From an uncultured Bacilli bacterium (GTDB lineage Bacteria; Bacillota_I; Bacilli_A; RFN20; CAG-449), in contig CALVJO010000005.1 of the NCBI GenBank assembly GCA_944332225.1, positions 1 through 60,432 on the forward strand: a stretch of 60,432 nucleotides of DNA, in the 5' to 3' direction. Below, in pieces: positions 27,248 through 50,275 of the stretch (positions are counted from its first letter, which is position 1; the number at the start of each line of letters is the position of its first letter). The notes under the pieces were generated by a model. That model had not been told where the DNA came from. It did no database searches and worked only from the letters and a program-made list of their open reading frames with translations. Made by a program: the position numbers and the translations under genes.

Positions 27248-29551
27248 TTAACCTCGATTCAATGTTAGTCTAGAGGAAGATATTTTCTTGTTATATAGAT
27301 ATATTCCAAGAATAATCAAGGCTATAGCGCCTACCCAAATAAAGGAAGTCCACCACCAAGAACCAACTGTATAGATAAGTGAAGAAACAATATAAGATAC
27401 GATAAGCCAGAAAGCGATCGTGTATTTTAAAGTTCCTTTCTTAAGTTCTGCTTTAGCAGTTGCCACCGCGGCAAAGCAAGGAATTGTTAGCATATTGAAA
27501 GCAATGAAGGAGATGAGAGCAGGAATAGTTATGTTTGTAGCCTGTACCATTGCGACAACTTCGTTAACTCCCTCTCCTTCTGCACTTCCTAATGCGACTC
27601 CAACCACCGCTGCTAACATGCCAAATGTTGCAATTACGTTTTCTTTAGCAATTAATCCGGTTATAGCCCCAACTGCGAAGACCCAACCAAAGGCTGCAAG
27701 CTGAGAACCAAATCCTAGAGGAGTGAATAATGGTTGAATTAATTTTCCAATTCCCGCGAGAATTGAATCATCAGTAGTCAATGTTCCTAAGAACTGTAAT
27801 GTTTCAGGATCATATTCTATATACTTCCAATCAAAGGTAAATGATTGTAAGAACCAAATGACAATCGTAGAAATCAAGATGATCGTGAAGGCTTTTTCAA
27901 TAAAGTGTTTTAATTTATCCCATAAGTGAATCATCAATGATTTAAATTGAGGTAAGTGATAGTTAGGTAACTCCATAATAAATGGAGCGACCTCACCTTT
28001 TAAGGTGGTTTGTTTCATGACAATTAAAGCAACAATGGCAGTTACCATACCAAGCAAATACATGCTTAAGGTGATTAAATCAGCATTTCCGACACCTAAA
28101 GTTATGATAATTGCCCCTGTACATGCTGTTAGAATCGGTAGTTTTGCTCCACATGAGAAGAAAGGAATAACTCTAATGGTCGCGATTTTTTCTTTTTCAT
28201 CTGATAGAGTTCTTGTATTTATCATCGCAGGGACCGAGCAACCAAAGCCCATGATCATTGGCATGAAGGCTCTGCCTGAAACCCCAAATTTTCTAAATAT
28301 TCTATCGAGAATAAAGGCAACTCTAGCCATGTAGCCTGTATCTTCTAAGATCGAGAAGAATAAGAATAACAATAAGATTTGAGGAACAAAGCTTAACACC
28401 GAGAATAAGCCACCTAATATTCCATCGCATACCAACGCTACTCCCCAGTTAGACGCATTCATAGAAGTTAATAAATCGCCAACTAAGGAATTTATCCAAT
28501 CTGTAAAACAGATGACTAGATTTTGTAGGATAACTCCAATAGAATTAATTCCTCCTTCAGTGAAGAATAATCCTTTAAAAGGAGTTCCTGCAAAGTTAGT
28601 AGGGAAACTTACTCCCATCGCGTTCAAATAAAGAAAATCTTCTGCGAATGTAAGATGGAATATAACAAACAAAATCGCGATAAATATTGGAATTCCTAAC
28701 CATTTATTGGTCAAGACTTTATCAATCTTATCTGATTTAGATAGCTTCTTTTTATTAGGATCTTTCTTTGAGTAGACGTTAGATAAATTAGAAGTAATAT
28801 ATTTATATCTTTCATCCGCGACCATCGCTTCTAAATCTTGAGAAGATAGATGTTCATCGTTATATTCTTTAACAAATTTATAAACATCAGGATGTTTATT
28901 AGTTTCAAGCTCATCATTTTCAATGATTTTTAAGGCATGAAATAATGGATTAGGAATATCTTGTTTCTTTAAAGATTCTGTAACCTCATTTATTAAATTC
29001 TTTAAAGGTGAATCTTTTAAGATGGTCATTCCTTCTCTTTTCTTCTTAGCAAAATCAATTGCCCTATCCATTAAAAGAGAAATATTTTCTTCCTTTAACG
29101 CGGATATTTCAACCACGGGAACCCGTAATTTATTTTCTAATTCGCGAACATTAATAGAATCGCCTTCTTTATTAACTTCATCTATCATATTTAAGGCAAT
29201 TACAACAGGTAAATCCATCTCTAATAGTTGAGAAGTTAAATAAAGATTTCTTTCTAGATTTGTCGCATCGACAATATTGATTATTAAATCGATCTTTTCA
29301 TCAATTAAGGCATTTCTAGAAATAACTTCTTCTGAAGTATAAGGAGATAAAGAGTAGATTCCAGGAAGATCTAGAATATAAACTTCTTCCTTAGTCACCT
29401 TATTCTTATAAATTCCATCTTTTTTTTCAACAGTAACTCCTGGCCAGTTACCAACATGGGCTGTTGAGCCAGTTAGAACATTAAATAAGGTAGTTTTTCC
29501 TGAATTAGGATTCCCCGCGAGGGCAAAACGCATTCTTTCTCTTTGAGCCAT
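27248..29551 (-). CDS. feoB: ferrous iron transporter B
   Basis: GNPNSGKT, VGNWPGVTVE, DLPG, LERNLYL, NMID GTPase motifs; EDTGYMAR, GFGCSVP, FIMELP. Confidence 0.97.
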   Translation of the reverse strand: MAQRERMRFALAGNPNSGKTTLFNVLTGSTAHVGNWPGVTVEKKDGIYKNKVTKEEVYILDLPGIYSLSPYTSEEVISRNALIDEKIDLIINIVDATNLERNLYLTSQLLEMDLPVVIALNMIDEVNKEGDSINVRELENKLRVPVVEISALKEENISLLMDRAIDFAKKKREGMTILKDSPLKNLINEVTESLKKQDIPNPLFHALKIIENDELETNKHPDVYKFVKEYNDEHLSSQDLEAMVADERYKYITSNLSNVYSKKDPNKKKLSKSDKIDKVLTNKWLGIPIFIAILFVIFHLTFAEDFLYLNAMGVSFPTNFAGTPFKGLFFTEGGINSIGVILQNLVICFTDWINSLVGDLLTSMNASNWGVALVCDGILGGLFSVLSFVPQILLLFLFFSILEDTGYMARVAFILDRIFRKFGVSGRAFMPMIMGFGCSVPAMINTRTLSDEKEKIATIRVIPFFSCGAKLPILTACTGAIIITLGVGNADLITLSMYLLGMVTAIVALIVMKQTTLKGEVAPFIMELPNYHLPQFKSLMIHLWDKLKHFIEKAFTIILISTIVIWFLQSFTFDWKYIEYDPETLQFLGTLTTDDSILAGIGKLIQPLFTPLGFGSQLAAFGWVFAVGAITGLIAKENVIATFGMLAAVVGVALGSAEGEGVNEVVAMVQATNITIPALISFIAFNMLTIPCFAAVATAKAELKKGTLKYTIAFWLIVSYIVSSLIYTVGSWWWTSFIWVGAIALIILGIYLYNKKISSSRLTLNRG

Positions 29552-29552
29552 A

Positions 29553-29786
29553 TTATCCCTCCAATTCCACTTCTACAAACTTAGCTTCACTTTTTCTTAA
29601 AGTTAGGCTATAGTTTCTGATTTTAACTTCTAAAGGGTCATTTAACGGAGCCTTTTTAACTAAAACAAGCTTTGCTCCAGGAGTAACTCCCATATCAAAA
29701 AGCCTCCTTCTTATTTTCCCTTCACCATAAATCTTTTTAATAGTACCTTGTTCTCCAATTTCAAATTCATCTAATAATTTAATCAT
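29553..29786 (-). CDS. feoA: ferrous iron transport protein A
   Basis: RRLFDMGVTPG...APLNDP...LTLRKSEA. Confidence 0.93.
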   Translation of the reverse strand: MIKLLDEFEIGEQGTIKKIYGEGKIRRRLFDMGVTPGAKLVLVKKAPLNDPLEVKIRNYSLTLRKSEAKFVEVELEG

Positions 29787-30014
29787 TTAAAATCCTTCTT
29801 TCGTTTTAACGTAGATTTTACTAGCTATATCCTTACTAAGAGCCAGTCTTCCATTTTTAATTAGCAAGATGACATTTCCCTTAGATGATTCTAAAAGTGT
29901 AAGCTGCTGGTCAGGAATGATCCCTAAATTCTCTAGATGCTTCTTAAGCTTCCCTTCAGATTGCACTTTGATAATAGTTAGAGGAACACCGATAGGTGCA
30001 AATATTAATGGCAT
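29787..30014 (-). CDS. feoA: ferrous iron transport protein A (second copy)
   Basis: MPL...KHLENLG..P...RLALS..IASKIYV; GGGAGG SD. Confidence 0.88.
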   Translation of the reverse strand: MPLIFAPIGVPLTIIKVQSEGKLKKHLENLGIIPDQQLTLLESSKGNVILLIKNGRLALSKDIASKIYVKTKEGF

Positions 30015-30025
30015 ATATACCTCCC

Positions 30026-30095
30026 GTTAGTTATAACTAACATCATTATATTTAACGGAAATGCCTTGTCAACAAAAAAGTTAGATAGAACTAAC
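30026..30095 (-). promoter_or_regulatory. feo promoter flanked by two DtxR/MntR-family-like operators
   Basis: Minus-strand TTGACA (30072-30067), 16 nt, TATAAT (30050-30045); palindromes GTTAGTTATAACTAAC (30026-30041) and GTTAGATAGAACTAAC (30080-30095). Confidence 0.75.
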
Positions 30096-30232
30096 ATTTG
30101 ATTAAAATAAAGTTTTCTGATCCAGCCTATCTTAATTATTAATAATGTTAGGCAACAAAATAGATAAGGAAAATATTTGATTCAATCTTTACATGCATAT
30201 TATGTAATAGCTTACAAGATAAATGATGAATA

Positions 30233-32101
30233 TTATTTGCTTCTTAAATAATGGTAGTAACCATCTTTCTCTTCGATAAATTTAAAGCCTTTAATTTTAT
30301 ATTTATTACCATTAGCTAAAAGAAAAATATCTTTCAAACTTGAAATCTTTTTATAAATATTATGACTGTTTAAAACAGATCTTGTCTCCATTCCTAACAA
30401 ATCTTTAGATGCTGACGGGGATATTTTAATAAAGATGAAAGTAATTATTTTCATAAAAAATAATTTTAGCTTAGATGGTTTATAATTTGAAGAAACAGCT
30501 AAAGGGACGAATGTTTGCTCTAATAAAGAAGAAACTTGCTTAAAAGTTAATTTTGCTTTTTTAGAATAATGTTTTAAGGCTTTTCTTTGCAATATATTAG
30601 GATTATCTAAAACTAATTTAGATAATGACAAAGTAAAATTAAGATTATTTGATTCTTGTTCCTCTTCTAACATCTTTTCATAAATTCTTTTTTCAAGCGC
30701 GTTGTAATCATTAAAGATGATTGCTTCATATGATTTAGATAAATAAATTGAATCTATTTGTTTGTTAGTATTTAGAAAATTTAAATCCAGACTCTTACCA
30801 TCTAAAGGAAAGATAATTTCCTTTAAAGATGGACAATTTTCAATTAAGCATCTAATCGGTTTATTTACAATGCAGGAAGAATAATCAGCCTTAATTAAAT
30901 TAGGTAGGTTTTCTAGCAGGATAAAGCAATCTTCGTTTCCTTCATCATTTTTAAAATAATTAGATGGAAAGATGATGTTTTCAATTTTAGAATTTTCAAA
31001 ATGATCTAAATATCCATCAAAATTATCATTTAATATGAGAGTTTTTAAATTTTCTTTATTTGAGCATCCAACAACATTGACATCAGGTAAAAATAGCCAA
31101 TTATAATTCTGATCAAAATAATTATTGTTCATCTTAGAAATAGTGTTGTTAACATATATTGTTTTAAGCTTTGGCTTATTAAAATCACCGATGAAATCGG
31201 ATTCAAGATTAGAAACATTTCTTAAATCTAGAATTCTAAGATTCTTGCATCCTAAAAAGACATTTGAATAGATATGTTTACAAGATTTAGGAATATTAAT
31301 TTCCTTTAAAGAAAAGCAGTTAAGAAAAGTATAGCCATTAGAATCAGATTCTATCTTTTCATGCCCACCTATAGATTCTATAGTCTCAGGAAGATAGATA
31401 GTTTCTAAAAAGGTCATATTAGCAAAAGCCATAGGGCCAAGAGCAATAACTTTATATTTTTTATCCTCAATAGTTAAATAAGGAGGAACATTTATTTTAT
31501 AAGCAAAAGGATCTTTATAACCGCTTATGATGAGAGAATCTTCAATAATTTTAACCATGAAAGGATTCTCTTTTTTCATCGCGCGTAAAGCTTTTATTTT
31601 TTCTTCATAAGATGATGCGCCTAGAAGATAGGTTATTTCATTTGCAAATACTTTTTTATATAGCTTCTTTGCTTCGTTTGGTAAAGATAAAGATTCGCTT
31701 AATATTTCCCCTGATACTGTTAAATTATTAATCTTTCCGTAATTAATCGAAAAATATGATTTATGAGAAAGGTCTACTCTTTTCATAAGTCTATAAAGGA
31801 AAGGATCATTCAATGAATCTTCGTTTAAATATATAATTGCTCCTATACAATCATAATCATCAATTTTTTCTAAAATGAAATCTTGATAATCTTTGCTAGA
31901 GTCAATCTTTTTATCGTAGAAAACAGAAATATTTTCTGATAGATAGATTAAAACATCAATCAAGGCTTCCTTATATAAAGAGGTAGGATAGTAAATTAAA
32001 TAATATCCTTGATCTATAAGAGGCTCAGGAATCAGCTTTTTTATATCATCATTAATTTCTTTAGATTGTAAAATTTGGTTAATCTTTTCTTTAGTATCCA
32101 T
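30233..32101 (-). CDS. degenerate TIR plus BspA-type LRR (LRR_5) protein
   Basis: N-terminus colinear with the upstream TIR paralog (GYYLIYY...VFYDKKI...CIGAIIYLNEDSL); LRRs AFANMTFLETIYLP, FLNCFSLKEINIP, FLGCKNLRILDL. Confidence 0.7.
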   Translation of the reverse strand: MDTKEKINQILQSKEINDDIKKLIPEPLIDQGYYLIYYPTSLYKEALIDVLIYLSENISVFYDKKIDSSKDYQDFILEKIDDYDCIGAIIYLNEDSLNDPFLYRLMKRVDLSHKSYFSINYGKINNLTVSGEILSESLSLPNEAKKLYKKVFANEITYLLGASSYEEKIKALRAMKKENPFMVKIIEDSLIISGYKDPFAYKINVPPYLTIEDKKYKVIALGPMAFANMTFLETIYLPETIESIGGHEKIESDSNGYTFLNCFSLKEINIPKSCKHIYSNVFLGCKNLRILDLRNVSNLESDFIGDFNKPKLKTIYVNNTISKMNNNYFDQNYNWLFLPDVNVVGCSNKENLKTLILNDNFDGYLDHFENSKIENIIFPSNYFKNDEGNEDCFILLENLPNLIKADYSSCIVNKPIRCLIENCPSLKEIIFPLDGKSLDLNFLNTNKQIDSIYLSKSYEAIIFNDYNALEKRIYEKMLEEEQESNNLNFTLSLSKLVLDNPNILQRKALKHYSKKAKLTFKQVSSLLEQTFVPLAVSSNYKPSKLKLFFMKIITFIFIKISPSASKDLLGMETRSVLNSHNIYKKISSLKDIFLLANGNKYKIKGFKFIEEKDGYYHYLRSK

Positions 32102-32102
32102 A

Positions 32103-33767
32103 TTATTTATTCTCTATTCTTATAAATTTATGATAGTTAGTTAAATCAGATTCAACCCGTTTAAAAGCTGAACTAACTTTGATTTTTTGGCTTGTTAAAT
32201 AGATAGTATCTAACGTAGGAATAACTTCATCAATATAGGTTAGTCTCTTGCTGTTTTTAATTTTATTTTCAATAACTATAAGTTTCTTTGTATTAATAAT
32301 TGCTGTTTTAAGATTTAGACAATCATTAAAAGAACTAGATGACAAATGAATCTCTTTAGGATGCTTTAGTTCAATTTTTTGAAGGCTGCTACAACCATAA
32401 AAAGCATCTTTATCTATCAAAGAAACATCATTTAATACTAAGCTTTCAAGGCTCTTTAAATTTGAAAATGCCTCGGTTTCTATAGTTAGATTTTTTGCTT
32501 CGTCGATAATGTTTTTTATCTTTATACAATTTTTAAAGGCTTGGGGATAGATGCATTTTAATCCATTTGGTAAATTGATTGATTCTAAACTTTTACAATT
32601 ATAGAACGCGCGATATCTAATGGAATAGCAGTTATCAGGTATGGTGAAATTAATCAAATTTTGGCAGTTAGCTAGAGCCTCATCTTGAATTATTTCTAAA
32701 CTGTTAACGATAATAGTTTTTAAATTAGGAGAATCTTTAAAAAGAAAGAAAGCATCGTCCCCTTTTTCAAATTCAATAGTTTCAAGATATTCACTTTTAC
32801 CGATTAGGGATACATTATTAGGCACGAATAGATATTTTAAGTTGATGCAGTTATTAAACGCGGACATTTCTATTCTCCCGTTTTCCGTCTTAGCTAGATT
32901 TACTTTAGTTAAATTAACGCAGTTATAGAAGGCGTAGTCTTGAATGTATTTCCAGTTTATAGGCAAGCTAATTTCTTCAAGAAAACGAAAATTAGCAAAC
33001 GAACCAACTCCAATTCCTGAAACAGGTTTTGTCTCACCTTTAATTTTAATATTTTGAGGTATAGAAACCTTTTTGATTGATATATCTCGACAATAAGATA
33101 ATAAATATTCATTATTTTCATCGCCCATAGAATCATCTTTTGAGTATTTAAATAATTTTGGAGAAGGAATATTTTTGATTTGCTCCTTAATCTCATCAAG
33201 CGAAGTATTTGAAATCTCCAAAAGGACTTTTGATTTAATTGATAATATTGATTTTAAAAATATTTTTTCATCTAAAGAAATATTTAAAGAATTATATATT
33301 TCATCGGTGACCTCAGCTTCTTTTAAAAGCTTTGGGGAGATATCTTTATTATTAGAAAAGAAGCTATCGATAACTATAAAAAATGGTTCAATATCAGGTA
33401 ATGAGATGATTAATGATGACTTTTTATATTTTGAGGATAAATTGTATTCCTTATTTAAGGAATCAGAATGCAAGCAGTTTTTACTTACAAAATAAATTAT
33501 TCCTTTGCACGAAAAAGAATAAACCTTCTTTTTTACAAATTTAATCCAACTTTCTCCGTTTTCTAAGCCCCTGTCATACCAAAGATTAATTCCTGATTCG
33601 AGAAGCTTTAAGATGTAAGGAAAGACCACTTTATAATCTTTATGAGAATAGGAAATAAAATAATAGCCTTCATCGCTGTTAGGATCTGGCATGATTCCTT
33701 GCTTTTGGACTTCTTCTAATGATTTAGAATTTAGAATGAAATTAATTTTATCTTGTAATGTATCCAT
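32103..33767 (-). CDS. TIR plus BspA-type LRR (LRR_5) protein
   Basis: YFISYSHKD, LWYDRGLENGESW, IYFVSKNCLHSDSLNKE TIR motifs; many AF.NC.NL..I.IP repeats. Confidence 0.85.
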   Translation of the reverse strand: MDTLQDKINFILNSKSLEEVQKQGIMPDPNSDEGYYFISYSHKDYKVVFPYILKLLESGINLWYDRGLENGESWIKFVKKKVYSFSCKGIIYFVSKNCLHSDSLNKEYNLSSKYKKSSLIISLPDIEPFFIVIDSFFSNNKDISPKLLKEAEVTDEIYNSLNISLDEKIFLKSILSIKSKVLLEISNTSLDEIKEQIKNIPSPKLFKYSKDDSMGDENNEYLLSYCRDISIKKVSIPQNIKIKGETKPVSGIGVGSFANFRFLEEISLPINWKYIQDYAFYNCVNLTKVNLAKTENGRIEMSAFNNCINLKYLFVPNNVSLIGKSEYLETIEFEKGDDAFFLFKDSPNLKTIIVNSLEIIQDEALANCQNLINFTIPDNCYSIRYRAFYNCKSLESINLPNGLKCIYPQAFKNCIKIKNIIDEAKNLTIETEAFSNLKSLESLVLNDVSLIDKDAFYGCSSLQKIELKHPKEIHLSSSSFNDCLNLKTAIINTKKLIVIENKIKNSKRLTYIDEVIPTLDTIYLTSQKIKVSSAFKRVESDLTNYHKFIRIENK

Positions 33768-33799
33768 CTTTTTAAGTAATTATATCCCATATTTTTTAG

Positions 33800-34912
33800 T
33801 TAAAATAAGTCACTTTTATTAAAAGAGAAAAAGAAATGAAGAGAATTTAAATCATATAAAGATTCTAATGATAAGATATAACGATTAAATTCCATCATAG
33901 AAGCAAATGTTTTAATTGGATTTTCGCTTGTTTTAGAAATATCGATAGAATCATTATTTATCTTTATTAGAAGTCGTTCATCACCTATTTGATAAACATA
34001 AGTTTTGTTTTCAAAAGTCATGATATTTTTATTGATTGAGAAGAGAAATTTTAAAAATTCAATCTCATCATAGACTTTAATTAATAAATCATCTTGAAGA
34101 GAGATATTCTCACTTAATAATGAAAATTTATAAAATAAATCACGATCTAAAGAAGAGACTGATATTGTTAATTCTTTATTAAAATAATTAAATATAGATT
34201 TAATAATTAAAGGTAATTTATCTATATCAAATATAACAAATTCATCAATATTATCTAAATGTTCTTTTTTGGTGAAGTAGCCATAGACTTTATCATTTTG
34301 CTTTAAAATATAAGGTTTTCTTCTCCCACCTATTAATGATTTATAGAAATCATCTTTAGTTTTAAGCTTATATAAATCCTGCTTTAAATATTGAGAATAT
34401 AAAGCTTCAATATCATCATCTGATTCCTGTAATTCAAGGCATGAAATCTCGGTTTTTAAAGGTAATCTTTTATTTAGAATCGTGAAATTATAATCATAAC
34501 CAACTTTTTCATAACCAAAGTGATTATATCTTGTTCTATCTCCAGTTAAGATAGAGAAAATAACCTTCTGAGAAACATTCTCAGAGTTAATATTTTTCAT
34601 CAATAAAGACATATAGCCCCGATTTTGATATTCTTTTAAAGTCGCGATTGAGCCAACAAAAGAAACTAGATAAGGTTTATCTAGATTAATCTCTTTTAAA
34701 ATATTCCCTCCGACTGAGACCATTTTTTGATCTTCAATGATGCAGAAGTGAGATGGAGAATAGTCAATTTTAGAACTATAGATTTTAGCCATATTGATTC
34801 TAAAATCAAATTCAGGATATCTTACTTCTTTAAACGCGGAGTTCGCGCAGGAGAGGATTTGATTTAGTTCTCCTTTTTTACATTTTCTTATGTTCATTAT
34901 AGGCGTCCTCAT
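33800..34912 (-). CDS. GNAT (Eis-like) acetyltransferase
   Basis: VGSIATLKEYQNRGYMSLLM acetyl-CoA motif, RYNHFGYE; alternative start ATG 34897 with GAGG SD; overlaps the upstream gene end. Confidence 0.85.
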   Translation of the reverse strand: MRTPIMNIRKCKKGELNQILSCANSAFKEVRYPEFDFRINMAKIYSSKIDYSPSHFCIIEDQKMVSVGGNILKEINLDKPYLVSFVGSIATLKEYQNRGYMSLLMKNINSENVSQKVIFSILTGDRTRYNHFGYEKVGYDYNFTILNKRLPLKTEISCLELQESDDDIEALYSQYLKQDLYKLKTKDDFYKSLIGGRRKPYILKQNDKVYGYFTKKEHLDNIDEFVIFDIDKLPLIIKSIFNYFNKELTISVSSLDRDLFYKFSLLSENISLQDDLLIKVYDEIEFLKFLFSINKNIMTFENKTYVYQIGDERLLIKINNDSIDISKTSENPIKTFASMMEFNRYILSLESLYDLNSLHFFFSFNKSDLF

Positions 34913-37900
34913 ATATCTTTAATAATTTTTTACTTCCGCTGATGAAGCCATCAGGGCTTCTAATAATAGTTACTTCATGATTGAATAACTCATTTATTTT
35001 AGGTAAATCTCTTAAAATAGCAAACATTTTAACATGCGTGTTATCTACAAGATCACTTATGTATTTTTTAAGCTCATCGTCTTGAAAATTATTAAGCTTA
35101 TTGTATTCATCTAATCCAATTAAGCAAATGTTATAATCATCTTTTTCGATTCGAACCTGGGAAAGAATCTCTTTATTATTCCTAAATAAGTTTATCTTCT
35201 TATAAAGAACGTCATCATCTACTTTCTTTAAGATGGTAAATTCGCTGCTTTTTTCAATTAAACTTAAATCAATTTTAGTTTTATTCTTGAATTCAAAGGA
35301 TAAGCTTTTAACGTTTTGTTTATTAAACTTGGTATGGAAATCGTTAATGGTTAATAGCTTAATATCATCAAATTGATCGATATATTTAATAGTTAAACCT
35401 GGATAGGAAGATAAGAATAAATAATTTTTATAAGTGATTTTAGTTAAATCTAATTCCCCAAAATCGATATTTTGAATTGATTCCATGTCAGCAAAAGCGT
35501 AGGAACCGATCTCTTTAATTGAAGAATTTAATTTAACGTTATTGATAAATTGACATGTAGAAAGAGAGTCTCCTCCAATTATTGAGACCATCGGATCGAT
35601 AACGATGTCTCCTTTGATTCCAGGAGGCATTCTAAATAAGGTAATCGATGATGAATCTTTAGAATACAATATTCCATCTTTCGTGAAGTATTTAGGATTG
35701 TTTTCAATAAAATACTTCGTTAATATTGGGCAAAAATCTGTGAAGTCAGATGAGATATCTTCAATTTCATCCGGTAAGATTAATTCTTCAATATTTTGAT
35801 TATAGGCTAATGAATGATCTTTAATTTCCTTTATTTCTTTAGGCAAGATCACTCTTCCTTTTAAAGCAGGGACTCCAATATTTAAAATTAATTTATTGTT
35901 TGGACCTTTTGAACAAAGCAGCTGATTATTTAATAATGAGACAAAGTTTTCATTATTTTTAGCTATCTTTATTTCTTTTAATTCATTACAGAATCTAAAT
36001 AATGGATGGTTAAAAACTTTATAGTTATTTCCTATATAGATAGTTTCTAAATTTGGACAGGAGATAAAACAAAATGCTGAAATCTTTAATTCATCCGTTG
36101 AGGAAATTAAATATGCTTTCTTTAATCGAGTCATCTTAGAAAATGACGCGTGAGATATATATTCACATGAAGCAGGGATTTTAATTATTTCTATATTCTC
36201 ACATGAGGCAAAAGCCATCTCAGGAATATAATATAGCTGTAAATTAGTTAAAATTTCATTTTGAATTTCTTCTTCTCGATATAGAGATAATTTATAAATT
36301 AATAAAGTTAAATTTGGATAAGTATTTTGATTTATTAAATTTTTATCAAAGTTTTGTTGGTTACCATTAATTAAGTCAAAAAATAAATCATCTTTGCTTA
36401 ATAGTTTTAATAAAGAATATTTTTCTAAGATATTTGAAGAAAAGTCATCTAATTCGTTTAATTTATCTACCCAATTTATTTTTTTATCTACGATAGAATT
36501 TATTTCTTCTTTAACATATTTATAGAGAAGATAAGTTTTAATTTCGTCGACTATATAGTATTCGTCTCCATCGTTTTGTAAGACTCCATAGGTCACTAGA
36601 AGATCTTTAAATAATAAGTTAGATATTTGTCCATATTCGCTTTTATACGCGCATTTACCGAGGGTTTTAAACTCTTCTAATAATTCTTTTTTGATTAAAG
36701 AGCTGATATCTAAATATTTATTATTAAATAAGGATGAAATTTGATTAATTAAAGATATTTCTCCTCCTGATTCTAAAAGAAGGGAGAAGATTTCTAATTC
36801 ATTTTGAACTAATATTTCTTTTAAGAAAGATTCATTGTTATTAAGTAATTTAATTAACAAATTAATCTTAGAATAAGATGAGAAAAATTTAAAAAACCTA
36901 TCATCTTCCGTTAGATTATTGATTTGATTAATGATATTTGGTGATACTTTACAAAATTTTAAATAGGCGAGAATTTTATTTTTATTAAGAGATAATATCT
37001 CCGCGTATGTTTCTTCCATTTTCTTAGAAATATCTAGGGCTAAAGACTTATTTACATATCTTTTTCTTGAGAAAAATACGATTTCAAAACTAGATTTTAA
37101 ATCGTCTATCTCATTTAAAATTATCTGTTTAAGATTACTAGCTACATAATCAAAATTATCTAATAACAAACATATTTTTTGATGATAGGAAGAATAGGTA
37201 GCTAAATCATCAAAGTTAAATCCGATGGTGTTAGGAAAGTTTAATGAAAAAGCGTTTTGAATAAGATTTTCGTCACTTGAGGATAATGAAGCAATCTTGC
37301 TTAAATCAATATAGAGAGAATATTGATTATTCAAATAATAATTAATTAAAAGATATGAGGTTCCTGAACCTTCTGATCCAAAGATATTAATTGGGAAATT
37401 ATGATTGATTAATTTTTCTAATGACGATGAATTCTCATCTGAAAGATAAACTTGATCCTTATCATCTTTTAAATCAGGTAAAGACGAAGTCATAATCTCT
37501 TTTTTAAAGAAGAAAGATTTAAAATAGATATGATTGATTATTAAGCATGATGAGGTGACTTGATATAGATAATAATTATTTTGATTAATTGATTTAATTA
37601 AGATATTTAAAAAGTATTTAAACCCGTTAATTAAATCATATGTTTCATAATAAATTTTATTAATATCAGAAGAATTATTATAGATATCATTTAATTTTTC
37701 GTTGATGTATATAACGGTTTGATTGATAAATTCTTGATTATCTTTAGTTTTATAATGAGTTAAAAGATGGTCTTTTAAAACTGAATTAACATTAAGAGAA
37801 GAAGGAAGAGAAAGTAAATAAGAATCACTTCGATATCCCATCAAATCGTTTAAGATATTTTTTATAAATATAGAATTAGCTTCTAAGTTTAAGTTATTTG

Positions 37901-38522
37901 AAAAAGGCTCATCGTTAATAAAGGCAAAACTTTTCGTTCTTGGATCGATAAATAAGGTCGAAAAATCAGCTTTAGATGATAGATATTCATTTTGATCTTG
38001 CTTAGCTAAAAGATAAGAAAGCAAATTGATAAATAAAGATAGAAAATTTTCATAGCTAGGAACTAGAGATCCTTTTCCAATATAATTTAAAAATGGAATT
38101 CCATTATTTTCATTAACATCAGAAAAAGTAGTTAATTTACAAGACGGAAAATCATCATGAGAAGTGACGATTTCTATAAACTCATCATAGCTCATAGCCA
38201 CTTGAATCTTAGAAAATTTCTCAGCGAGGCTGAGATTATGAGTTAACTTATCTAAATCGATAACATAGATTTTTTTCTTACGATCAGTTGCATCATCATA
38301 TTCTTTTTGACAATATTCAGAATAGCGATAGTTATTGCTGACAAAAGCGATGAAAATCGTGCATGAAGCAATCGCGCAACGGATGTGCGCGTCCCAAAAG
38401 TCTCCAGATTTTAAATCTTTTTTATCATAAAAATATAGATATCTCTTTTCTTTTAAATAGTTCACATATGGTTCGACTAATAGATAGTCTTTATGTGAGT
38501 AAGATATAAATATAGACCCCAT
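34878..38522 (-). CDS. TIR - STAND/NACHT-like NTPase (degenerate P-loop) - BspA LRR - HPr kinase N-terminal-like multidomain protein
   Basis: IFISYSHKD, FYDKKDLKSGDFW and FIAFVSNNYRYSEYCQKE TIR; IFGSEGSGTS Walker A-like; CLLLDNFD Walker B; LRRs at about aa 770-1050; ICLIGLDEYNKL...ILRDLP...IIRS tail. Confidence 0.75.
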   Translation of the reverse strand: MGSIFISYSHKDYLLVEPYVNYLKEKRYLYFYDKKDLKSGDFWDAHIRCAIASCTIFIAFVSNNYRYSEYCQKEYDDATDRKKKIYVIDLDKLTHNLSLAEKFSKIQVAMSYDEFIEIVTSHDDFPSCKLTTFSDVNENNGIPFLNYIGKGSLVPSYENFLSLFINLLSYLLAKQDQNEYLSSKADFSTLFIDPRTKSFAFINDEPFSNNLNLEANSIFIKNILNDLMGYRSDSYLLSLPSSLNVNSVLKDHLLTHYKTKDNQEFINQTVIYINEKLNDIYNNSSDINKIYYETYDLINGFKYFLNILIKSINQNNYYLYQVTSSCLIINHIYFKSFFFKKEIMTSSLPDLKDDKDQVYLSDENSSSLEKLINHNFPINIFGSEGSGTSYLLINYYLNNQYSLYIDLSKIASLSSSDENLIQNAFSLNFPNTIGFNFDDLATYSSYHQKICLLLDNFDYVASNLKQIILNEIDDLKSSFEIVFFSRKRYVNKSLALDISKKMEETYAEILSLNKNKILAYLKFCKVSPNIINQINNLTEDDRFFKFFSSYSKINLLIKLLNNNESFLKEILVQNELEIFSLLLESGGEISLINQISSLFNNKYLDISSLIKKELLEEFKTLGKCAYKSEYGQISNLLFKDLLVTYGVLQNDGDEYYIVDEIKTYLLYKYVKEEINSIVDKKINWVDKLNELDDFSSNILEKYSLLKLLSKDDLFFDLINGNQQNFDKNLINQNTYPNLTLLIYKLSLYREEEIQNEILTNLQLYYIPEMAFASCENIEIIKIPASCEYISHASFSKMTRLKKAYLISSTDELKISAFCFISCPNLETIYIGNNYKVFNHPLFRFCNELKEIKIAKNNENFVSLLNNQLLCSKGPNNKLILNIGVPALKGRVILPKEIKEIKDHSLAYNQNIEELILPDEIEDISSDFTDFCPILTKYFIENNPKYFTKDGILYSKDSSSITLFRMPPGIKGDIVIDPMVSIIGGDSLSTCQFINNVKLNSSIKEIGSYAFADMESIQNIDFGELDLTKITYKNYLFLSSYPGLTIKYIDQFDDIKLLTINDFHTKFNKQNVKSLSFEFKNKTKIDLSLIEKSSEFTILKKVDDDVLYKKINLFRNNKEILSQVRIEKDDYNICLIGLDEYNKLNNFQDDELKKYISDLVDNTHVKMFAILRDLPKINELFNHEVTIIRSPDGFISGSKKLLKIYEDAYNEHKKM

Positions 38523-38584
38523 GCCTAAATATTATCATTTTTAAACTAATGATTGTATTAAAGTTAAAAAAAACCTGATTTTGA

Positions 38585-39301
38585 TTATTCTTTGCTGACT
38601 GAATAAGGATCAACAAACTGAAAAGTTAAACAGTCTGAATACTTTTTAGCAATTTCAATTTTGCTATCATCATCGATAGTCCAAGATAAAGTTAATCTTT
38701 TATTTATTGATTTTTGATATTTAGGCTTCTTTAAAAGCTCGACATCTAAGTCAACACCTTCAAAAAAGTGACGGAAAATATATGGATATTCATTGCTTCC
38801 AACTAGAAGCAAACGATTGATAGATAATGATTTAACATACAATAAACATTGAGGATAGAAAGAGATGATTAAATAGTTTTTTGCGTCCTTAATATCTTTT
38901 AGCTCTTCTTTTAAGCGATTAGCTAAAGCTTTATAGTTTTGTTTATAAGGCTTAAGTTCAATAACTAAAGGAACCTTTTCTGAGACTAAAGATAGAACCT
39001 CTTGTAAGGTTGGAACCGTCTCACCATTTAATAATCGATAATTATCTTTAATTTCTTGTAAGGTTAAATTTTCAATTATCCCCTCTTTAGATGTAGTTCT
39101 CTTTAATGAAGCATCATGCATCACGATGAGATTATTATCTTTAGAAAGATGAACATCTAATTCGATGGCTAAATTATGATTTAGAGCATTTTTAAAGGCT
39201 TCCATCGAATTTTCAGTGATTTTTTCATTATGTAATCCTCGATGGCAAACACCTTTAAAAATGGATGGATTAATCCTCTTTAATACTTTTTCTTTATTCA
39301 T
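38585..39301 (-). CDS. glycerophosphodiester phosphodiesterase
   Basis: CHRGL..ENSMEAF, IELDVHLSKD, VMHD..LKRT, VPTLQEVL, IELK, WTID; likely start ATG 39301. Confidence 0.92.
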   Translation of the reverse strand: MNKEKVLKRINPSIFKGVCHRGLHNEKITENSMEAFKNALNHNLAIELDVHLSKDNNLIVMHDASLKRTTSKEGIIENLTLQEIKDNYRLLNGETVPTLQEVLSLVSEKVPLVIELKPYKQNYKALANRLKEELKDIKDAKNYLIISFYPQCLLYVKSLSINRLLLVGSNEYPYIFRHFFEGVDLDVELLKKPKYQKSINKRLTLSWTIDDDSKIEIAKKYSDCLTFQFVDPYSVSKE

Positions 39302-39305
39302 ATGA

Positions 39306-40703
39306 TTAATCGTTATCCCCAAGAGCTTCTAATCCAGTTTTAAAAGTAGTCTTAACATTTTTAACGTTTTTAATAAACAAGAAGATGATCAATGATATAA
39401 CTAAGCAAACTAAAGCGTAGTAAGGTAAGACTCCAAAGTCAAAATTAGGAATAAGTAATATTGAACCTAATAAGATAGGTGTAACCGTTTGAGCCGCCAT
39501 ACTAGAAGCATAATAGTATCCGGTGAATTTACCAATTTTCTTTGAGCTGCAAAGCTCGACTACCATCGGATAAGAATTGACGTGAACTAAACTCATACCA
39601 AATCCTTTTAAGAACCAAATGATATATAAATAAACAGGAAATACTCCAGAATTATAAGCAAATTCAGGCAAGGTGAAGTTAAGGATCGCCCATAATCCAT
39701 AGGCCATGAAAGTTAATCCTAAGCCGGAGACCACGGTCCATTTTCTAGTCAATTTAGAGGCGATTAAGCCACCTATTGCAAATCCGATTACTGAACCAAC
39801 TCCTCCCATGATGGTATTTATCATAGTTGAAGATGATGATGCGTTAAGATGATAAACAGTATAATTAGTCATAAATGTTGCGATTCCGTTATCGGCCATA
39901 AACCAGAAGAATTCCGCGACTAAAATAAGAATTAACATTATTTTATTGTTTTTAGATAAAGGTTTATCATCATCAGCTTTCTCTTCTAATTCTGAAAGCT
40001 TTTCACCTAGTTCCATCTCTTCTTTTACTTCTTCAGCAATCTTATTTTCTTTGATGGTAAAGAATAAAACTAAGCAGGAGATAACCATCAATACCGAGGC
40101 TAGTAAGAATGGAACCTCAATAACCCAAATATTATTAAAAGCCCAAGAGCCTTCTTTAGATAGATAGTCAGTTAATACGAAGAATACTCCAACGATGGTA
40201 GCAAAGAAACCTCCGATGTAACCCATGATGTTAATGATTCCATTAGCCTTACTTCTTAAAGGTTTAGGAGTCATATCTGGCATCAAGCTAACTGCAGGAT
40301 TACGATACATCATCATAAATATGACTACGAGGGCCATAAATATTATCATTCCAACTATGTTGTTATAATGGAAAAACACCGGGATAAATGGAAATAAAAC
40401 TGCGGTTACAAAGGTACCAACTAAGATGTATGGCATTCTTTTACCGATAGGAGTTTTAGTCTTATCCGATAAAGAACCAAATATAGGTAATAATATTAAC
40501 GCGGCTAGATTATCAAGAGCCATGATGATTCCAACTAAATATTGAACTTCTTTAGGATCCTCAATTGAAAAAGCTCTTGCGAATTGTTCGCTTAGAAAGG
40601 TAGGACACCAAGAATCGTAAACCTGCCATAATAGTAAGATGCCAAAGAACGCAAATCCGATTATGAATGTTCTCTTTAAATTAAGTTTCAAGGTGTTCTC
40701 CAT
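39306..40703 (-). CDS. MFS transporter (MalT/SLC45-like sugar carrier)
   Basis: About 12 TM; GSLSDKTKT.IGKRMPY, SLMPD.TP, GKFTGYYY motifs. Confidence 0.88.
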   Translation of the reverse strand: MENTLKLNLKRTFIIGFAFFGILLLWQVYDSWCPTFLSEQFARAFSIEDPKEVQYLVGIIMALDNLAALILLPIFGSLSDKTKTPIGKRMPYILVGTFVTAVLFPFIPVFFHYNNIVGMIIFMALVVIFMMMYRNPAVSLMPDMTPKPLRSKANGIINIMGYIGGFFATIVGVFFVLTDYLSKEGSWAFNNIWVIEVPFLLASVLMVISCLVLFFTIKENKIAEEVKEEMELGEKLSELEEKADDDKPLSKNNKIMLILILVAEFFWFMADNGIATFMTNYTVYHLNASSSSTMINTIMGGVGSVIGFAIGGLIASKLTRKWTVVSGLGLTFMAYGLWAILNFTLPEFAYNSGVFPVYLYIIWFLKGFGMSLVHVNSYPMVVELCSSKKIGKFTGYYYASSMAAQTVTPILLGSILLIPNFDFGVLPYYALVCLVISLIIFLFIKNVKNVKTTFKTGLEALGDND

Positions 40704-43467: not shown

Positions 43468-44868
43468 GTGAAAAAAACTTTATTAATTATAACCGCACTT
43501 ACTGTAGCTTTCTTAGCTAGCTGCGATGGATTACCTAGCATCCAAACCTCCTCACCTTCTTCTGATGAAACTAGTCAAACTTCGTCAGTTATCACCTCAT
43601 ATTTAAGATTTAAAGATGATAACGTTGATTCTATTGAATTAGATCAAAGCGTTAAATTAACTGTTGAATATGATGTAAATGCGATGGTTAATTTAGTCTT
43701 TAGCTCATCTCAAACATTAATTTGTTCAGTTGATGATGAAGGAACTATTAAAGGTATTGGAATCGGCGAGGCCACTATTACCGTTAAAGATACTTATTCA
43801 AATTTAGAAGACAGCATAAATATCGAAGTGATTGCTCCATTACCTGAATTTACTTCTTCAGATCAAATTGTATCTTTTATTCGTGAAACATCTGTCTTGA
43901 AAGAATCATCCATCGGAGAGATTAGCCATGTAGAGACATCTAAAAATGATTATTATGATGGCACGGAAACTATAACTATTAAAAATTATGATGGAGATGC
44001 CTTGATTAGAGAAAATGAAGAAACCTATACATCATGGGGGAATGAGAACACATCTTCTTCAACTGACGCTAGAATTATTCAAGATGATAAATATTATGAT
44101 CTAACCTTAGATAATACAGGAGGTTATTCTTACGCGTCAGTATATTCAATAGTTGATTTCCCTGATGGAAGCTCCTCCCAGATTGAATTAACCGAAGCCA
44201 AAGAAAGAGTATCTTCATTCAATGTTTTCGGAGATATAGCTAATGATATAGCTTCATTAAATAAAACTAAGGAAACTATCGAGATAACTAAAGAGACCAA
44301 TCAGCTTGTAAAAGTCAATGGCGAATATCTCAATCAATGGCTAGGCGATCCGACTAAATCTGATTATGAGACGTTTAACTATTCTCTAGAATTTAAAAAT
44401 GATGGAACGATTCTATCGTTTACTCTTGAAAGTTATACTTATTCCGATGATTCTTATGATTTAATCAATAATTGCTTAAAAGAGGACGCGACTATAACAT
44501 CTCAAACATCAATTAAAGTTGAGGTAACTAATGAAACATTATTACCTATGGAAGAGATGAATATCGTTCCTACTGATTATTTTGTAAGTGAGATTATTGA
44601 AGCTAACTATAATACAAACAATCAAATTTCTATTGGTTCAACTTTATCAACTTATAACTTTAATATCACAAAATACTCCCCATCAACTGCCTTAGATTCT
44701 GAAGATTTCAGCATCATAAATGTTGAAAATGAACCAGGTGGACAACAGATTGTTGAAGATCCAATTTGGGGATATGAAGCTCAAAGTGAAGGAATTGCTA
44801 AAGTAACAATCGCTATGGATAATAATCCATCAGTAACCTACACAATAGAAATTACAGTTGTTAGATAA
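43468..44868 (+). CDS. lipoprotein with Ig-like (Big_2) domain
   Basis: GTG start with AAGGGG SD; lipobox LASC, Ser/Thr linker, FSSS...SVDDEGTIKGIGIGEATITV. Confidence 0.75.
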   Translation: MKKTLLIITALTVAFLASCDGLPSIQTSSPSSDETSQTSSVITSYLRFKDDNVDSIELDQSVKLTVEYDVNAMVNLVFSSSQTLICSVDDEGTIKGIGIGEATITVKDTYSNLEDSINIEVIAPLPEFTSSDQIVSFIRETSVLKESSIGEISHVETSKNDYYDGTETITIKNYDGDALIRENEETYTSWGNENTSSSTDARIIQDDKYYDLTLDNTGGYSYASVYSIVDFPDGSSSQIELTEAKERVSSFNVFGDIANDIASLNKTKETIEITKETNQLVKVNGEYLNQWLGDPTKSDYETFNYSLEFKNDGTILSFTLESYTYSDDSYDLINNCLKEDATITSQTSIKVEVTNETLLPMEEMNIVPTDYFVSEIIEANYNTNNQISIGSTLSTYNFNITKYSPSTALDSEDFSIINVENEPGGQQIVEDPIWGYEAQSEGIAKVTIAMDNNPSVTYTIEITVVR

Positions 44869-44881
44869 AAAGGAGAAACGA

Positions 44882-47272
44882 ATGAAAAAACATTATTTAT
44901 TATTAGCCCTCGCGGGAATCGTGTTAGTTTCCTGCCAAGGAGGAGGATCTAGCTCTCCAACTAGTTCTTCACCAAGTGAAGTAACCACCTCAAGTGAAGA
45001 TAATAAATTACAAGCCGTCTTAGAAGGATTAAAGCAAAACAATTTTACTACTAGCTATTCTTTAGGTAATCAAGCTAATACTTACATAACCTATCGTAGC
45101 AATGATTATTTCTTCGATACTTATAATCAAGTTGGATATATAGTTTTAGAAGATGATACGGTCTATAAATTTGCTTTATATGACAATGTTTGCATGCCTT
45201 CAGCCCCTAGAATGGGATTAAGAGATGAGATATTCTCTCCTAACTTTGAACCGATTGATGTTGATTTAGAATCCTGCGAGATGATTGATGATAATATTTA
45301 TCAATCAACTGATATTAAGGTAGTTCAAAGCTTTGCTCATGCTGCAAACATGACTATCTATGATTCAGATAATCAAGTGTATTTAGATACAGTTAATTTC
45401 TATCTTGATAACAATGATAACTTAAAATTCGCTGTTTATACGATCAATGATGTTATCTCTTTACAAGGAACTATCTATGCTATCAACAAGACTTCTTTAG
45501 AAGCCGCGGATCAATTCTTAGAAGAGGGAATATCTCCTGAAAATATAAAAACTGATGATGCATCATTAAAAGATATTTTTGGTGAAGGAGATTTCACTTT
45601 TAGATCTCAAGTTCGAGATTATGTTAACGGATATCAATATCAGCTCGTTCTTGGTAAAGATTACTATTATTATCCATCTAATGGAGAAGGCTCAATGGTT
45701 TTAAGCGATGGATATTCTCATCCATTTACTTTAACTTCTGAAGGAGATTTGACGGTTGATTATGAATATGATGCCTCTGAAGAGTATTATCGAGATTTAT
45801 TCTCTCTTAGAAGAGTCGATTATTCTAAATTCTATAAAGTAGATGATTCAACATTCTTAACTAGAGATTATTTTAATGTTAGCTCCTTAGCTTTCTACTT
45901 AGGACTTACCTCAACGGATGCGACAACTGGAGAAACTGTACCATTAACTAACGCGGATGGATTAAAAATTGTTATCAATCAAGATAATTCTTTAAGTTTG
46001 ACTTTCTATGATGATTCTTCAACTGCCGCGGAGGCTACATTAACTGACATTAATTCAGTCGCGATTGAACAAATTGATAATTATTTAAAATCTAATCTTC
46101 TTCCTAGCTTAGAAGTTCATGAAAATGCGAAGGCTTTAGATGATGCTATTCAAGCCCTAGATGCTTATGCTATTGAAGTTTTAGATTCCTCAAGCTTCGT
46201 GGAGAAAATTGAAATCGACCAAAATGGTAGATATGAAACTTGGAGTTATCCATTATCTAGAGATTTAAATTATGTTAAAAAAGGTAATAATTATTATCCT
46301 TTCTTAGTTAATGGATCTAGCTATGAAATAGATGTCACTCAGCCATTAAGCGAAGAAGAGTATCATTCTTTACTTGATTTAAAATCAATCGATTATTCTA
46401 CATTCTATTATTTAGGTGAGACGGATGGACGATATAGAACTGATATTCAACAACATTTAGATGTTTTATCTAACGTTTTCACTGTTAGTTCATACTCTCA
46501 AATAACTGCAGCATACATAACCTTAAATGATGATGGTTCAATCACTTTCTCTTTACAAGATGATTCATTATTAGGCGGAGGAGAATTACTTGAATACACC
46601 TTAACATCAATGGAAAGTTCATCAACCTTAACAAATGTAGTTAATAGCTTTGACGATAGCTTACTTGATTTAGGTGATCATACTCCTTTAGTTAACTTCT
46701 TTAATAAACTTAATGAAGAACAAAACTTTAGAGTTCGCTTTTTAAGCGGAGAAGGCGATAGCTATACAGAAGAAGATGATGATTTCTACACGAAAGAAAC
46801 ATATTATTCAGGATATTTTAAAGACGGTCTCTATCTCACCCCAAGCGGATATATTTATGAATTTAGAGAATCATATGTTGATTCTGAAACAGGGGATACG
46901 ATTCCTTTCCAAATTGGTTCTCATCCATTGAACGCAACATCAATTTATGAAAGCACCAACCTACCATTATTTACTGAAGAGGTCTTAAATACCTTCAAGT
47001 TAACTTCTCAAGGATTCGAAACTCAAAATAGTTACTATATCGATCTCATCTGCGGCTTCCTTTACATGGATTCTACCTATATTGATAAGATGATATTCTC
47101 TATAGTTGATGATGAACTACACATTAGATTTGAAACTAGAGAGTATACTCAAGATGAATCTGGTTTATTAATTAACGCATATGAATATACCTTATTTGCA
47201 GAGGTTAATATTATTGATGTAGGCTCAACTGTTATTCCTGAAGATGCAGTTTTACCAGAGAAATTAAAATAA
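44882..47272 (+). CDS. large acidic lipoprotein built of about four tandem modules of ~190 aa
   Basis: Lipobox LVSC plus Ser-rich linker; start ATG 44882 with AAGGAG SD; recurring NFT...YY....G.....G..Y.F pattern. Confidence 0.75.
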   Translation: MKKHYLLLALAGIVLVSCQGGGSSSPTSSSPSEVTTSSEDNKLQAVLEGLKQNNFTTSYSLGNQANTYITYRSNDYFFDTYNQVGYIVLEDDTVYKFALYDNVCMPSAPRMGLRDEIFSPNFEPIDVDLESCEMIDDNIYQSTDIKVVQSFAHAANMTIYDSDNQVYLDTVNFYLDNNDNLKFAVYTINDVISLQGTIYAINKTSLEAADQFLEEGISPENIKTDDASLKDIFGEGDFTFRSQVRDYVNGYQYQLVLGKDYYYYPSNGEGSMVLSDGYSHPFTLTSEGDLTVDYEYDASEEYYRDLFSLRRVDYSKFYKVDDSTFLTRDYFNVSSLAFYLGLTSTDATTGETVPLTNADGLKIVINQDNSLSLTFYDDSSTAAEATLTDINSVAIEQIDNYLKSNLLPSLEVHENAKALDDAIQALDAYAIEVLDSSSFVEKIEIDQNGRYETWSYPLSRDLNYVKKGNNYYPFLVNGSSYEIDVTQPLSEEEYHSLLDLKSIDYSTFYYLGETDGRYRTDIQQHLDVLSNVFTVSSYSQITAAYITLNDDGSITFSLQDDSLLGGGELLEYTLTSMESSSTLTNVVNSFDDSLLDLGDHTPLVNFFNKLNEEQNFRVRFLSGEGDSYTEEDDDFYTKETYYSGYFKDGLYLTPSGYIYEFRESYVDSETGDTIPFQIGSHPLNATSIYESTNLPLFTEEVLNTFKLTSQGFETQNSYYIDLICGFLYMDSTYIDKMIFSIVDDELHIRFETREYTQDESGLLINAYEYTLFAEVNIIDVGSTVIPEDAVLPEKLK

Positions 47273-50047: not shown

Positions 50048-50220
50048 AAATATAATCCCCTTTTTTTGTAAATTTCTCTGTTTGAAATTTATTGAAATTT
50101 TCTTATTTTTATATAGCAATTTCAACGATTTTATTTTTATTTTGATATTTATTGATTAAAATCTCGTCATTTTTAAATAAATATTAACGAAAAATTAATC
50201 TATGATTTTTTGATAAAGAT

Positions 50221-50268: not shown

Positions 50269-50275
50269 AAAAGTA

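Follow-up and report, generated by a model that had tools for sequence, protein, structure and literature searches.

Do four closely packed genes, all read from the minus strand of a 60,432-nucleotide (nt) contig of an uncultured Bacilli bacterium (CALVJO010000005.1; the whole stretch was analysed and is here called the window), work together as one immune system, and if not, what might they do? Three of the genes encode proteins with leucine-rich repeats (LRRs) and an N-terminal TIR or TIR-like domain and the other encodes an acetyltransferase of the GNAT family; an initial annotation made from the sequence alone had taken them for a single operon with the GNAT embedded among the receptors. 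Judged by gene neighbourhoods in other genomes, the four genes fall into two independent modules of two genes each, placed head to tail, and do not make up one conserved four-gene system, because the GNAT gene is linked only to the largest gene, whose product combines TIR, a NOD (nucleotide-binding oligomerization domain) and LRRs, and because the two smaller TIR-LRR genes recur without this pair. We refer to the large protein (1214 amino acids, aa), which resembles nucleotide-binding LRR receptors (NLRs), and its GNAT partner (370 aa) as module A, and to the two smaller proteins (554 and 622 aa) as module B.

A GNAT homologue lies directly downstream of the large gene, overlapping it by 4-35 nt, in all six loci with DNA context (the window, G001, G002, G022, L027 and L028), and the GNAT homologues at these loci share 28-46% identity (E 3e-35 to 3e-107). 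In one of the 14 family representatives (P0023, 1526 aa) the GNAT is fused to the C-terminus of the large protein (31% identity over 341 aa, E 1.5e-34), coming straight after the C-terminal domain with a short linker between. Seen from the GNAT side, eight of 61 genomes gave a match at E≤1e-5, five of them full length and three weaker and partial; four of the five full-length homologues adjoin a large gene and one (G054) stands alone. By these arrangements the NLR-like protein and the GNAT are an obligate pair, genetically and translationally coupled. Module B is absent from the vicinity of module A in five of the six loci, where no small TIR-LRR genes are found, and module A is absent from two of the three module B loci (L035 and G339). 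Linkage of GNAT and TIR-LRR genes in relatives, which the initial annotation had proposed as a check, therefore holds for the large gene and fails for the two small ones, and the neighbourhoods do not support a GNAT shared among all the receptors of one operon. When the N-terminal part of the 554-aa protein was searched against 60 relatives only TIR-level matches were obtained (E 4e-13 and weaker) and no orthologue turned up. At the strain level, contigs of run X5 from a strain about 98% identical cover 29000-40000, and one X12 contig from a strain about 92% identical bridges 31947-34515, across the junction of modules B and A. The side-by-side placement of the two modules is kept within one species only.

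Module A is rare. A profile of the central region of the large protein, run against 1.84 billion representative proteins, returned 18 at E≤0.001; for 13 of these E was below 1e-30, and the length was about 1200 aa in nearly every case. Full-length relatives were found in three of 60 related genomes (two genomes from the same genus, the third from a different genus within the family). A scan restricted to TIR N-terminal patterns from the closer alignment A1 covered 185,579 species genomes and gave five loci with a full-length match, three of which coincide with loci already found; of the five, two are labelled as uncultured Bacilli and one as Erysipelotrichaceae, and the other two are short contigs with the bin labels Muribaculaceae and Ruminococcus. 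Scans of viral contigs with alignments A1 and A5 detected no relative. Identity with the same-genus genomes (G001 and G002) is 36% for the large protein and 45% for the GNAT, versus 59-80% for the flanking HAD, MFS and GDPD proteins, and in these genomes module A is inverted relative to HAD-MFS-GDPD, with a serine recombinase directly downstream and an HsdS-like gene nearby. Taken together, these comparisons indicate that module A is accessory, fast-evolving and patchily distributed. As a separate observation, in L013 (G001:C3; 3577-4722 and 13066-15325) a serine recombinase (Resolvase), a weak N6_Mtase match and the HsdS-like gene flank module A, and these surroundings may be a phase-variable type I restriction-modification neighbourhood.

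Five parts can be recognized in the large protein, in the order TIR, helical linker, NACHT-like NOD, BspA-type LRR and a C-terminal domain resembling the N-terminal domain of HPr kinase. We modelled residues 1-1199 with AlphaFold2 from an alignment of 19 family members (mean predicted local distance difference test score, pLDDT, 84.3; predicted template-modelling score, pTM, 0.75), and a Foldseek comparison of this model with the PDB placed eukaryotic NLRs first (NLRC4, NRC3, NOD2, NLRP3, ZAR1 and RPP1, E 1e-10 to 1e-7), the best being NLRC4, NRC3 and NOD2 at E 1e-10 to 1e-9. Pfam recognizes TIR_2 at residues 4-91 (E 3.9e-15) and LRR_5 (E 2.8e-16), and both are matched by 14/14 family members. 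The TIR (residues 1-131) aligns with the TIRs of SPARTA, Hydra TRR-2, SARM1, RUN1 and RPS4 over about 125 residues with VIA Z of 13-15.6 and root-mean-square deviation (rmsd) of 2.4-3.1 (Z 15.6 for SPARTA, 14.4 for SARM1 and 14.2 for RUN1). Glutamate E74 is invariant in the 14 members; from motif position we take this column, and E107 of the 554-aa protein, to be the probable catalytic TIR glutamate. A catalytic NADase-type TIR is predicted on these grounds for the large protein and the 554-aa protein, and the feature appears to have been lost from the 622-aa protein.

The initial annotation had called the large protein a STAND (signal transduction ATPase with numerous domains) and had likened its layout to that of NLRs and of plant TIR-type NLRs (TNLs), and fold comparison bears both suggestions out. 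Residues 318-800 match NACHT modules over 345-361 residues at rmsd 4.1-4.4 (VIA Z 13.8 for NLRP3, 13.7 for NLRC4 and 12.8 for NOD2), ahead of the NB-ARC of NRC1 (Z 11.2), and it is because the NOD has the fold of these NACHT modules that the STAND call is correct, although Pfam sees no such domain: its NTPase models are blind to the NOD of the window protein, and its NACHT model matches just one of the 14 members (E 0.0049). A profile of the central region found no match among PDB sequences at E≤10, and the ESM Atlas offered weak leads (0.80-0.81) to clusters of nSTAND/NACHT type. A Walker B-like hhhhDxxD motif lies at residues 452-459, with its aspartates kept, and a sensor-1-like SRKR at 485-488, in which the arginine is residue 488. 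The Walker A loop is the canonical GxxGxGK[ST] in nine of the 14 family members and the lysine is gone in five; the Lys-less members are also full length and have the TIR glutamate and a GNAT partner.

Toward the C-terminus, the LRR fold (residues 660-1118) resembles 4gt6 (VIA Z 16.6), 4h09 (14.8) and PcpA (14.1). Behind it comes a domain, some 100 residues long, that the initial annotation had overlooked and that has invariant residues N1131, G1136, E1139, N1141, P1174 and R1188. Hpr_kinase_N (PF02603) is matched by eight of the 14 family members (best E 4.6e-11) and by four of four orthologous C-terminal pieces (E 1.9e-5 to 0.018, one above the 24-bit cut-off). For the window protein we infer homology to the HPr kinase N-terminal domain from the family alignment, since its own piece misses PF02603. 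To our knowledge, the function of this domain is not known even in HPr kinase. Mean pairwise identity within the family is 0.40 for the LRR, 0.36 for the TIR, 0.35 for the C-terminal domain, 0.30 for the NTPase core and 0.21 for the linker.

The partner of the large protein matches the GNAT family Acetyltransf_9 in Pfam (E 7.6e-11). Its structure model (pLDDT 89.1, pTM 0.88) finds E. faecalis 2hv2, M. abscessus Eis1 and Eis2 and M. tuberculosis Eis by Foldseek over the full length, at E 1e-17 to 1e-14 and template-modelling (TM) scores of 0.58-0.67. On this model the protein is an Eis-family three-domain GNAT with an N-terminal Acetyltransf_9 domain, for which acetyl transfer to amines would be the predicted activity. 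The C-terminal phenylalanine is invariant in nine of nine GNAT homologues and tyrosine residues are conserved; catalysis by Eis is said to involve the terminal carboxylate. We know of no Eis protein that is the partner of an NLR-like protein, and literature searches found none. Prediction of a complex between the GNAT and the large protein (residues 750-1214) scored 0.00 in two runs without controls, which is evidence neither way.

Module B pairs a TIR that looks active with one that does not. The 554-aa protein matches LRR_5 (E 3.2e-39) and falls at the edge of TIR_2 (27.6 bits against a cut-off of 28, and 30.4 bits in a second scan), and it keeps both the SYSHKD motif and the conserved glutamate, E107. 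In the 622-aa protein LRR_5 is the sole Pfam match, and its N-terminus and the TIR of the 554-aa protein are homologous (E 6.5e-11; BLASTP 2e-18). The TIR or TIR-like plus LRR assignments made in the initial annotation for these two proteins were thus correct, as Pfam and paralogy attest, and so was the description of the longer one as a pseudo-TIR: YYP replaces SYSHKD, a leucine occupies the glutamate column and no glutamate lies within five residues of it. Orthologous pairs were found at two further loci. In L035, a metagenome contig of 47% GC, the 554-aa orthologue is 32% identical and the 622-aa orthologue 29% identical (E 6e-73), each over its full length, the genes overlap by 4 nt, and the module has as neighbours genes for a MobA/VirD2 relaxase and for a large serine recombinase. 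In G339, a genome of the same class and another family, the same overlapping pair is present with 42% identity (full length) for the 554-aa protein and 42% for the 622-aa protein. All three dead orthologues share YYP and the leucine at the glutamate column, and all three live orthologues keep SYSHKD and the glutamate. Since these dead-TIR motifs are common to full-length orthologues only 29-42% identical, the loss is an old one that has been maintained.

Several further arrangements were seen around module B and its relatives. In G339 (L052, G339:C9, 929-8521) an 824-aa protein without Pfam match precedes module B with an 8-nt gap, and hhalign found no relation between this protein and the NLR family; after module B come an overlapping small GNAT (152 aa), a Mac/hexapeptide acetyltransferase and a short SIR2-family open reading frame (ORF). 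Another metagenome contig (L042, 593-5567) carries three tandem co-directional genes (415, 664 and 488 aa) whose N-termini are TIR-LRR-like, at 31-38% identity over about 120-230 aa. A 902-aa ORF in L053 (G217:C44, 3986-6694) shares 29% identity (E 1e-13) at its N-terminus with that of the 622-aa protein, where the dead TIR lies.

NACHT proteins that carry TIR effectors and LRR sensors are already known from bacteria and form an established defence class, according to Kibby et al. (10.1101/2022.07.19.500537). With these bNACHT proteins and the Avs STANDs the large protein shares an N-terminal effector, a central STAND/NACHT and a C-terminal repeat sensor, and it also shares the NACHT-module fold of residues 318-800. 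It differs from them in matching no Avs or NACHT model of PADLOC, in being all but invisible to the Pfam NACHT model, in the BspA/LRR_5 type of its LRRs, in the extra HPr-kinase-N-like domain, in the obligate Eis-like partner (fused once) and in the lost Walker A lysine of the window copy. Plant TNLs such as RPP1 have the same order of TIR, NOD, LRR and an extra C-terminal domain as well as the conserved TIR glutamate, and RPP1 chains align over the TIR and NOD of the large protein (Z 12.6-12.7); its NOD is nevertheless nearer to NACHT than to NB-ARC (Z 13.8 versus 11.2), the LRR type and the C-terminal domain differ, and common descent of the whole TNL-like architecture is not implied. The GNAT has the full-length three-domain fold, the Acetyltransf_9 domain and the terminal phenylalanine of the Eis enzymes (those of M. 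tuberculosis and M. abscessus and E. faecalis 2hv2) and differs from them in sequence, at only 11-16% identity. In the paired plant TIR receptors RPS4/RRS1 (TIR heterodimer, PDB 4c6t) RRS1 is the non-catalytic partner, and module B likewise sets a Glu-keeping TIR beside a Glu-less paralogue; it has no NOD, its heterodimerization is putative, and the likeness is one of analogy only. The TIR-APAZ protein of SPARTA has the closest TIR fold to that of the large protein. Compared with Thoeris and SPARTA, the cluster lacks ThsA, Argonaute and an APAZ partner as well as any gene for a SLOG, Macro or SIR2 effector, and its flanks, like the cluster itself, contain no ThsA-like gene. The absence of their partner genes led us to reject Thoeris, SPARTA, CBASS and Pycsar as identities of the cluster. 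In the literature we found neither a TIR-NACHT-LRR protein paired with an Eis-type or other GNAT nor a bacterial live/dead TIR-LRR pair, and supplementary tables may list such architectures. What is new, as far as the literature searched shows, is a very rare family with BspA-type LRRs, an HPr-kinase-N-like end domain and an obligate Eis-type acetyltransferase and, separately, a TIR-LRR pair that has no NOD and includes a conserved member with a dead TIR.

With moderate confidence, we read both modules as cytoplasmic conflict sensors, NLR-like in one case and Toll-like in the other, with a TIR NADase output, and place the acetyltransferase in the sensing or regulatory end of module A; the target would most likely be phage or mobile elements. 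In favour of this are the patchy distribution, the fast divergence, one mobile-element context (L035) and the presence of TIR, NACHT and LRR folds in one confident model. None of the four proteins has a signal peptide, transmembrane segment or cell-wall anchor, their N-termini are not hydrophobic and no 19-residue window reaches a Kyte-Doolittle mean of 1.6, in agreement with the cytoplasmic character proposed in the initial annotation. Activation would begin with ligand binding at the LRR/C-terminal end. In module A, binding would drive NOD-mediated assembly and in module B, the live and dead TIR-LRR chains would hetero-oligomerize, the dead-TIR chain of the heteromer perhaps regulating or templating the live one. 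Assembly would then join TIR domains so that the conserved glutamate site cleaves NAD+, and the infected cell would be arrested as NAD+ is depleted or a signal is made. The GNAT of module A may be a co-sensor or a regulator: a partner that is guarded, or a brake that depends on acetyl-CoA. We consider such a role the most likely, and that of a second effector less likely, because the fused GNAT follows the C-terminal domain and the C-terminal end of STANDs is the sensing end. A bolder version, offered tentatively and in our judgement doubtful, would have module A represent an NLR class in which an Eis-type acetyltransferase is integral to the receptor and infection is read through acetylation or the state of the guarded enzyme: for example, the acetyltransferase would be bound or watched over by the conserved LRR/HPr-kinase-N end, with binding or blocking of the enzyme, or a lack of acetyl-CoA for it, setting off the TIR. 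In the same version, module B would be a NOD-less, Toll-like live/dead heteromer, a prokaryotic counterpart of the paired plant TIR receptors.

Several observations weigh against conflict sensing as the function. The window is not a dense defence island, with feoA-feoA-feoB on one side of the cluster and HAD-MFS-GDPD on the other, and Pfam scans found housekeeping neighbours of module A in G022 and L028 too (L027 is too short to tell). PADLOC returned only weak TIR-level matches for the cluster (ThsB-like, E 3e-4 to 0.02) and no Avs or NACHT model; it names neither module, in line with the earlier remark that this is no recognized system. The window protein is itself one of the five family members without the Walker A lysine, with threonine in its place, so that its NTP switch may not work canonically. 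The LRR, moreover, is the best-conserved region, unlike what would be expected of a diversifying phage sensor, and this suggests a conserved, fixed ligand, possibly an endogenous one. Two weaknesses concern module A in particular: the window protein's own C-terminal piece has no PF02603 match at E≤1, and the fusion P0023 is known as a database protein alone, without its DNA.

How do other explanations fare against the same evidence? The model of the initial annotation, in which the four genes work as a set in one multi-receptor system with the GNAT as shared effector or regulator, draws on their co-directional, tight packing, on an arrangement kept in the X5 strain with its junction spanned in the X12 strain, and on a GNAT, though a different and small one, likewise trailing module B in G339. 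Conservation among strains of one species is not independent support, however, and with the modules apart at most of their loci and no orthologue of the 554-aa gene among the 60 relatives we regard a four-gene system as improbable. We also give little credence to the idea that the proteins are host-directed factors of a gut symbiont, in which the TIRs would mimic or interfere with Toll-like receptor adaptors, the LRRs bind host molecules and the Eis-like enzyme acetylate host proteins. At 1.33 Mb the source genome is small, and it has many BspA LRR genes (18 LRR_5 matches); the runs that contain DNA of the cluster are animal-gut metagenomes, four of which may be its source, the solved LRR structures closest to these belong to surface proteins of gut bacteria, and bacterial TIR effectors and secreted mycobacterial Eis do act on hosts; yet these proteins carry no export or anchoring signal, no secretion genes were seen near the cluster, a NACHT-like oligomerization module is a hallmark of intracellular switches, and module B of L035 sits beside a relaxase and a recombinase.

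A non-immune signalling role, with a STAND-type switch coupling a metabolite at the HPr-kinase-N-like domain to acetylation and NAD+ turnover, is unlikely in our view, if less so than the two preceding explanations. It would account for the LRR and C-terminal domain being among the best-conserved parts, for the invariant polar residues of the latter, which suggest a fixed ligand pocket, for a partner that is a metabolic-type, acetyl-CoA-using enzyme and for the housekeeping flanks, which number four of six loci with L027 counted in. It sits poorly with the extreme patchiness of the family (3/60 relatives and, in the pattern-limited scan, 5/185,579 species genomes), with module A genes that diverge much faster than their neighbours and with the recombinase and HsdS-like gene next to module A in G001 and G002; TIR, NOD and repeats together are furthermore the canonical layout of conflict systems (10.1101/2022.07.19.500537). 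Decay is the remaining explanation: with threonine for lysine in Walker A and a 622-aa protein stripped of its TIR motifs, the locus might consist of remnants that no longer function. We think this improbable as well, given that all four ORFs are long and intact, that the full-length dead-TIR orthologues share the same degenerate motifs and that the Lys-less NLR members are full length and keep the TIR glutamate and the GNAT partner. Conflict sensing by two separate modules remains the reading that we prefer.

The four ORFs were confirmed on the minus strand at the coordinates listed below. Like these coordinates, the intergenic gaps, 32 nt at 33768-33799 and 1 nt at 32102, agree exactly with the initial annotation. 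Its overlap of the two module A genes at 34878-34912, which is 35 nt, stands when the longest ORF is counted and not for the likely real start: GNAT homologues begin at the sixth codon of the 370-aa ORF and a GAGGA sequence lies 8 nt ahead of that ATG, so the true start is probably 34897 and the overlap 20 nt.

Coordinates of the genes of modules A and B and of domains and motifs of the large protein (window positions)
Feature	Position	Strand	Basis
Module A gene 1: NLR-like protein, 1214 aa	34878-38522	-	ORF, Pfam, AlphaFold2 model, Foldseek
Module A gene 2: Eis-family GNAT, 370 aa	33800-34912 (probable start 34897)	-	Pfam, model, Foldseek
Module B gene 1: TIR-LRR, 554 aa	32103-33767	-	Pfam, orthologues
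Module B gene 2: LRR protein with degenerate TIR, 622 aa	30233-32101	-	paralogy, orthologues
TIR domain of large protein, residues 1-125	38148-38522	-	TIR_2, fold match
Conserved TIR glutamate E74	codon 38301-38303	-	14/14 family members
NACHT-like NOD, about residues 318-760	36243-37571	-	fold match, motifs
Walker A-like loop, residues 382-389	37356-37379	-	alignment; Thr replaces Lys
BspA-type LRR, about residues 761-1050	35373-36242	-	LRR_5, fold match
C-terminal alpha/beta HPr-kinase-N-like domain (inferred), about residues 1121-1200	34923-35162	-	family alignment, PF02603 in relatives

Upstream of the cluster, the HAD-MFS-GDPD genes lie on the same strand; downstream, feoA-like ORFs at 29787-30014 and 29553-29786 open the feo genes, with a promoter just upstream. 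A scan of the window for promoters and terminators gave no excess over shuffled sequences (67 versus 76.9 and 5 versus 4.2 sites, respectively), the exception being a perfect sigma-70 TTGACA-16-TATAAT at 30072-30045 on the minus strand, a site that fits the feo operon and would mark the downstream boundary of the cluster. No tRNA or Rfam matches were found in the window, and none of the sequencing runs listed as containing the stretch is an RNA run.

Elsewhere in the window, at 3219-6983 (minus strand), a 1254-aa protein with DUF4011 and an MTES_1575 restriction endonuclease-like domain matches the PADLOC candidate model PDC-S37 (E 1.6e-42); this gene, 27 kb from the cluster, is possibly a helicase-nuclease defence gene and is the only other defence candidate noticed there. 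A 911-aa protein (11799-14534, plus strand) has C-terminal TPRs (725-846) as its only Pfam matches, none in the N-terminal 700 residues, and no PADLOC match. Four large ORFs (466, 804, 923 and 506 aa) at 43468-47272 (plus strand) and 47354-51796 (minus strand) are without Pfam match, and the first three, which were scanned with PADLOC, gave no match; GC content is 0.40 at 48-50 kb compared with about 0.30 for the window. Further TIR_2 genes occur in the same genome at G000:C41:2426-2785 (444-aa frame, E 9.8e-21) and G000:C17:21458-21820 (464-aa frame, E 3.1e-10). In L024 (G053:C12, 7101-13755), three co-directional ORFs (713, 315 and 795 aa) without Pfam match come after the gene for a TIR_2 protein of 377 aa, and this cluster may be another TIR system.

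What bacterial NLR-like proteins sense, and how partner proteins tune them, is mostly an open field. A TIR-NACHT-LRR protein with an obligate enzyme partner and a natural fusion of the two would give a handle on how a second protein can serve as sensor, guardee or brake, and the live/dead TIR-LRR pair may offer a minimal NOD-less system for how TIR assemblies become licensed. Both modules come from small-genome gut Bacilli, which have hardly been explored for immunity, and should neither of them defend against phage, they would point to a non-immune use of TIR-NOD-LRR layouts in bacteria, which would be informative as well.

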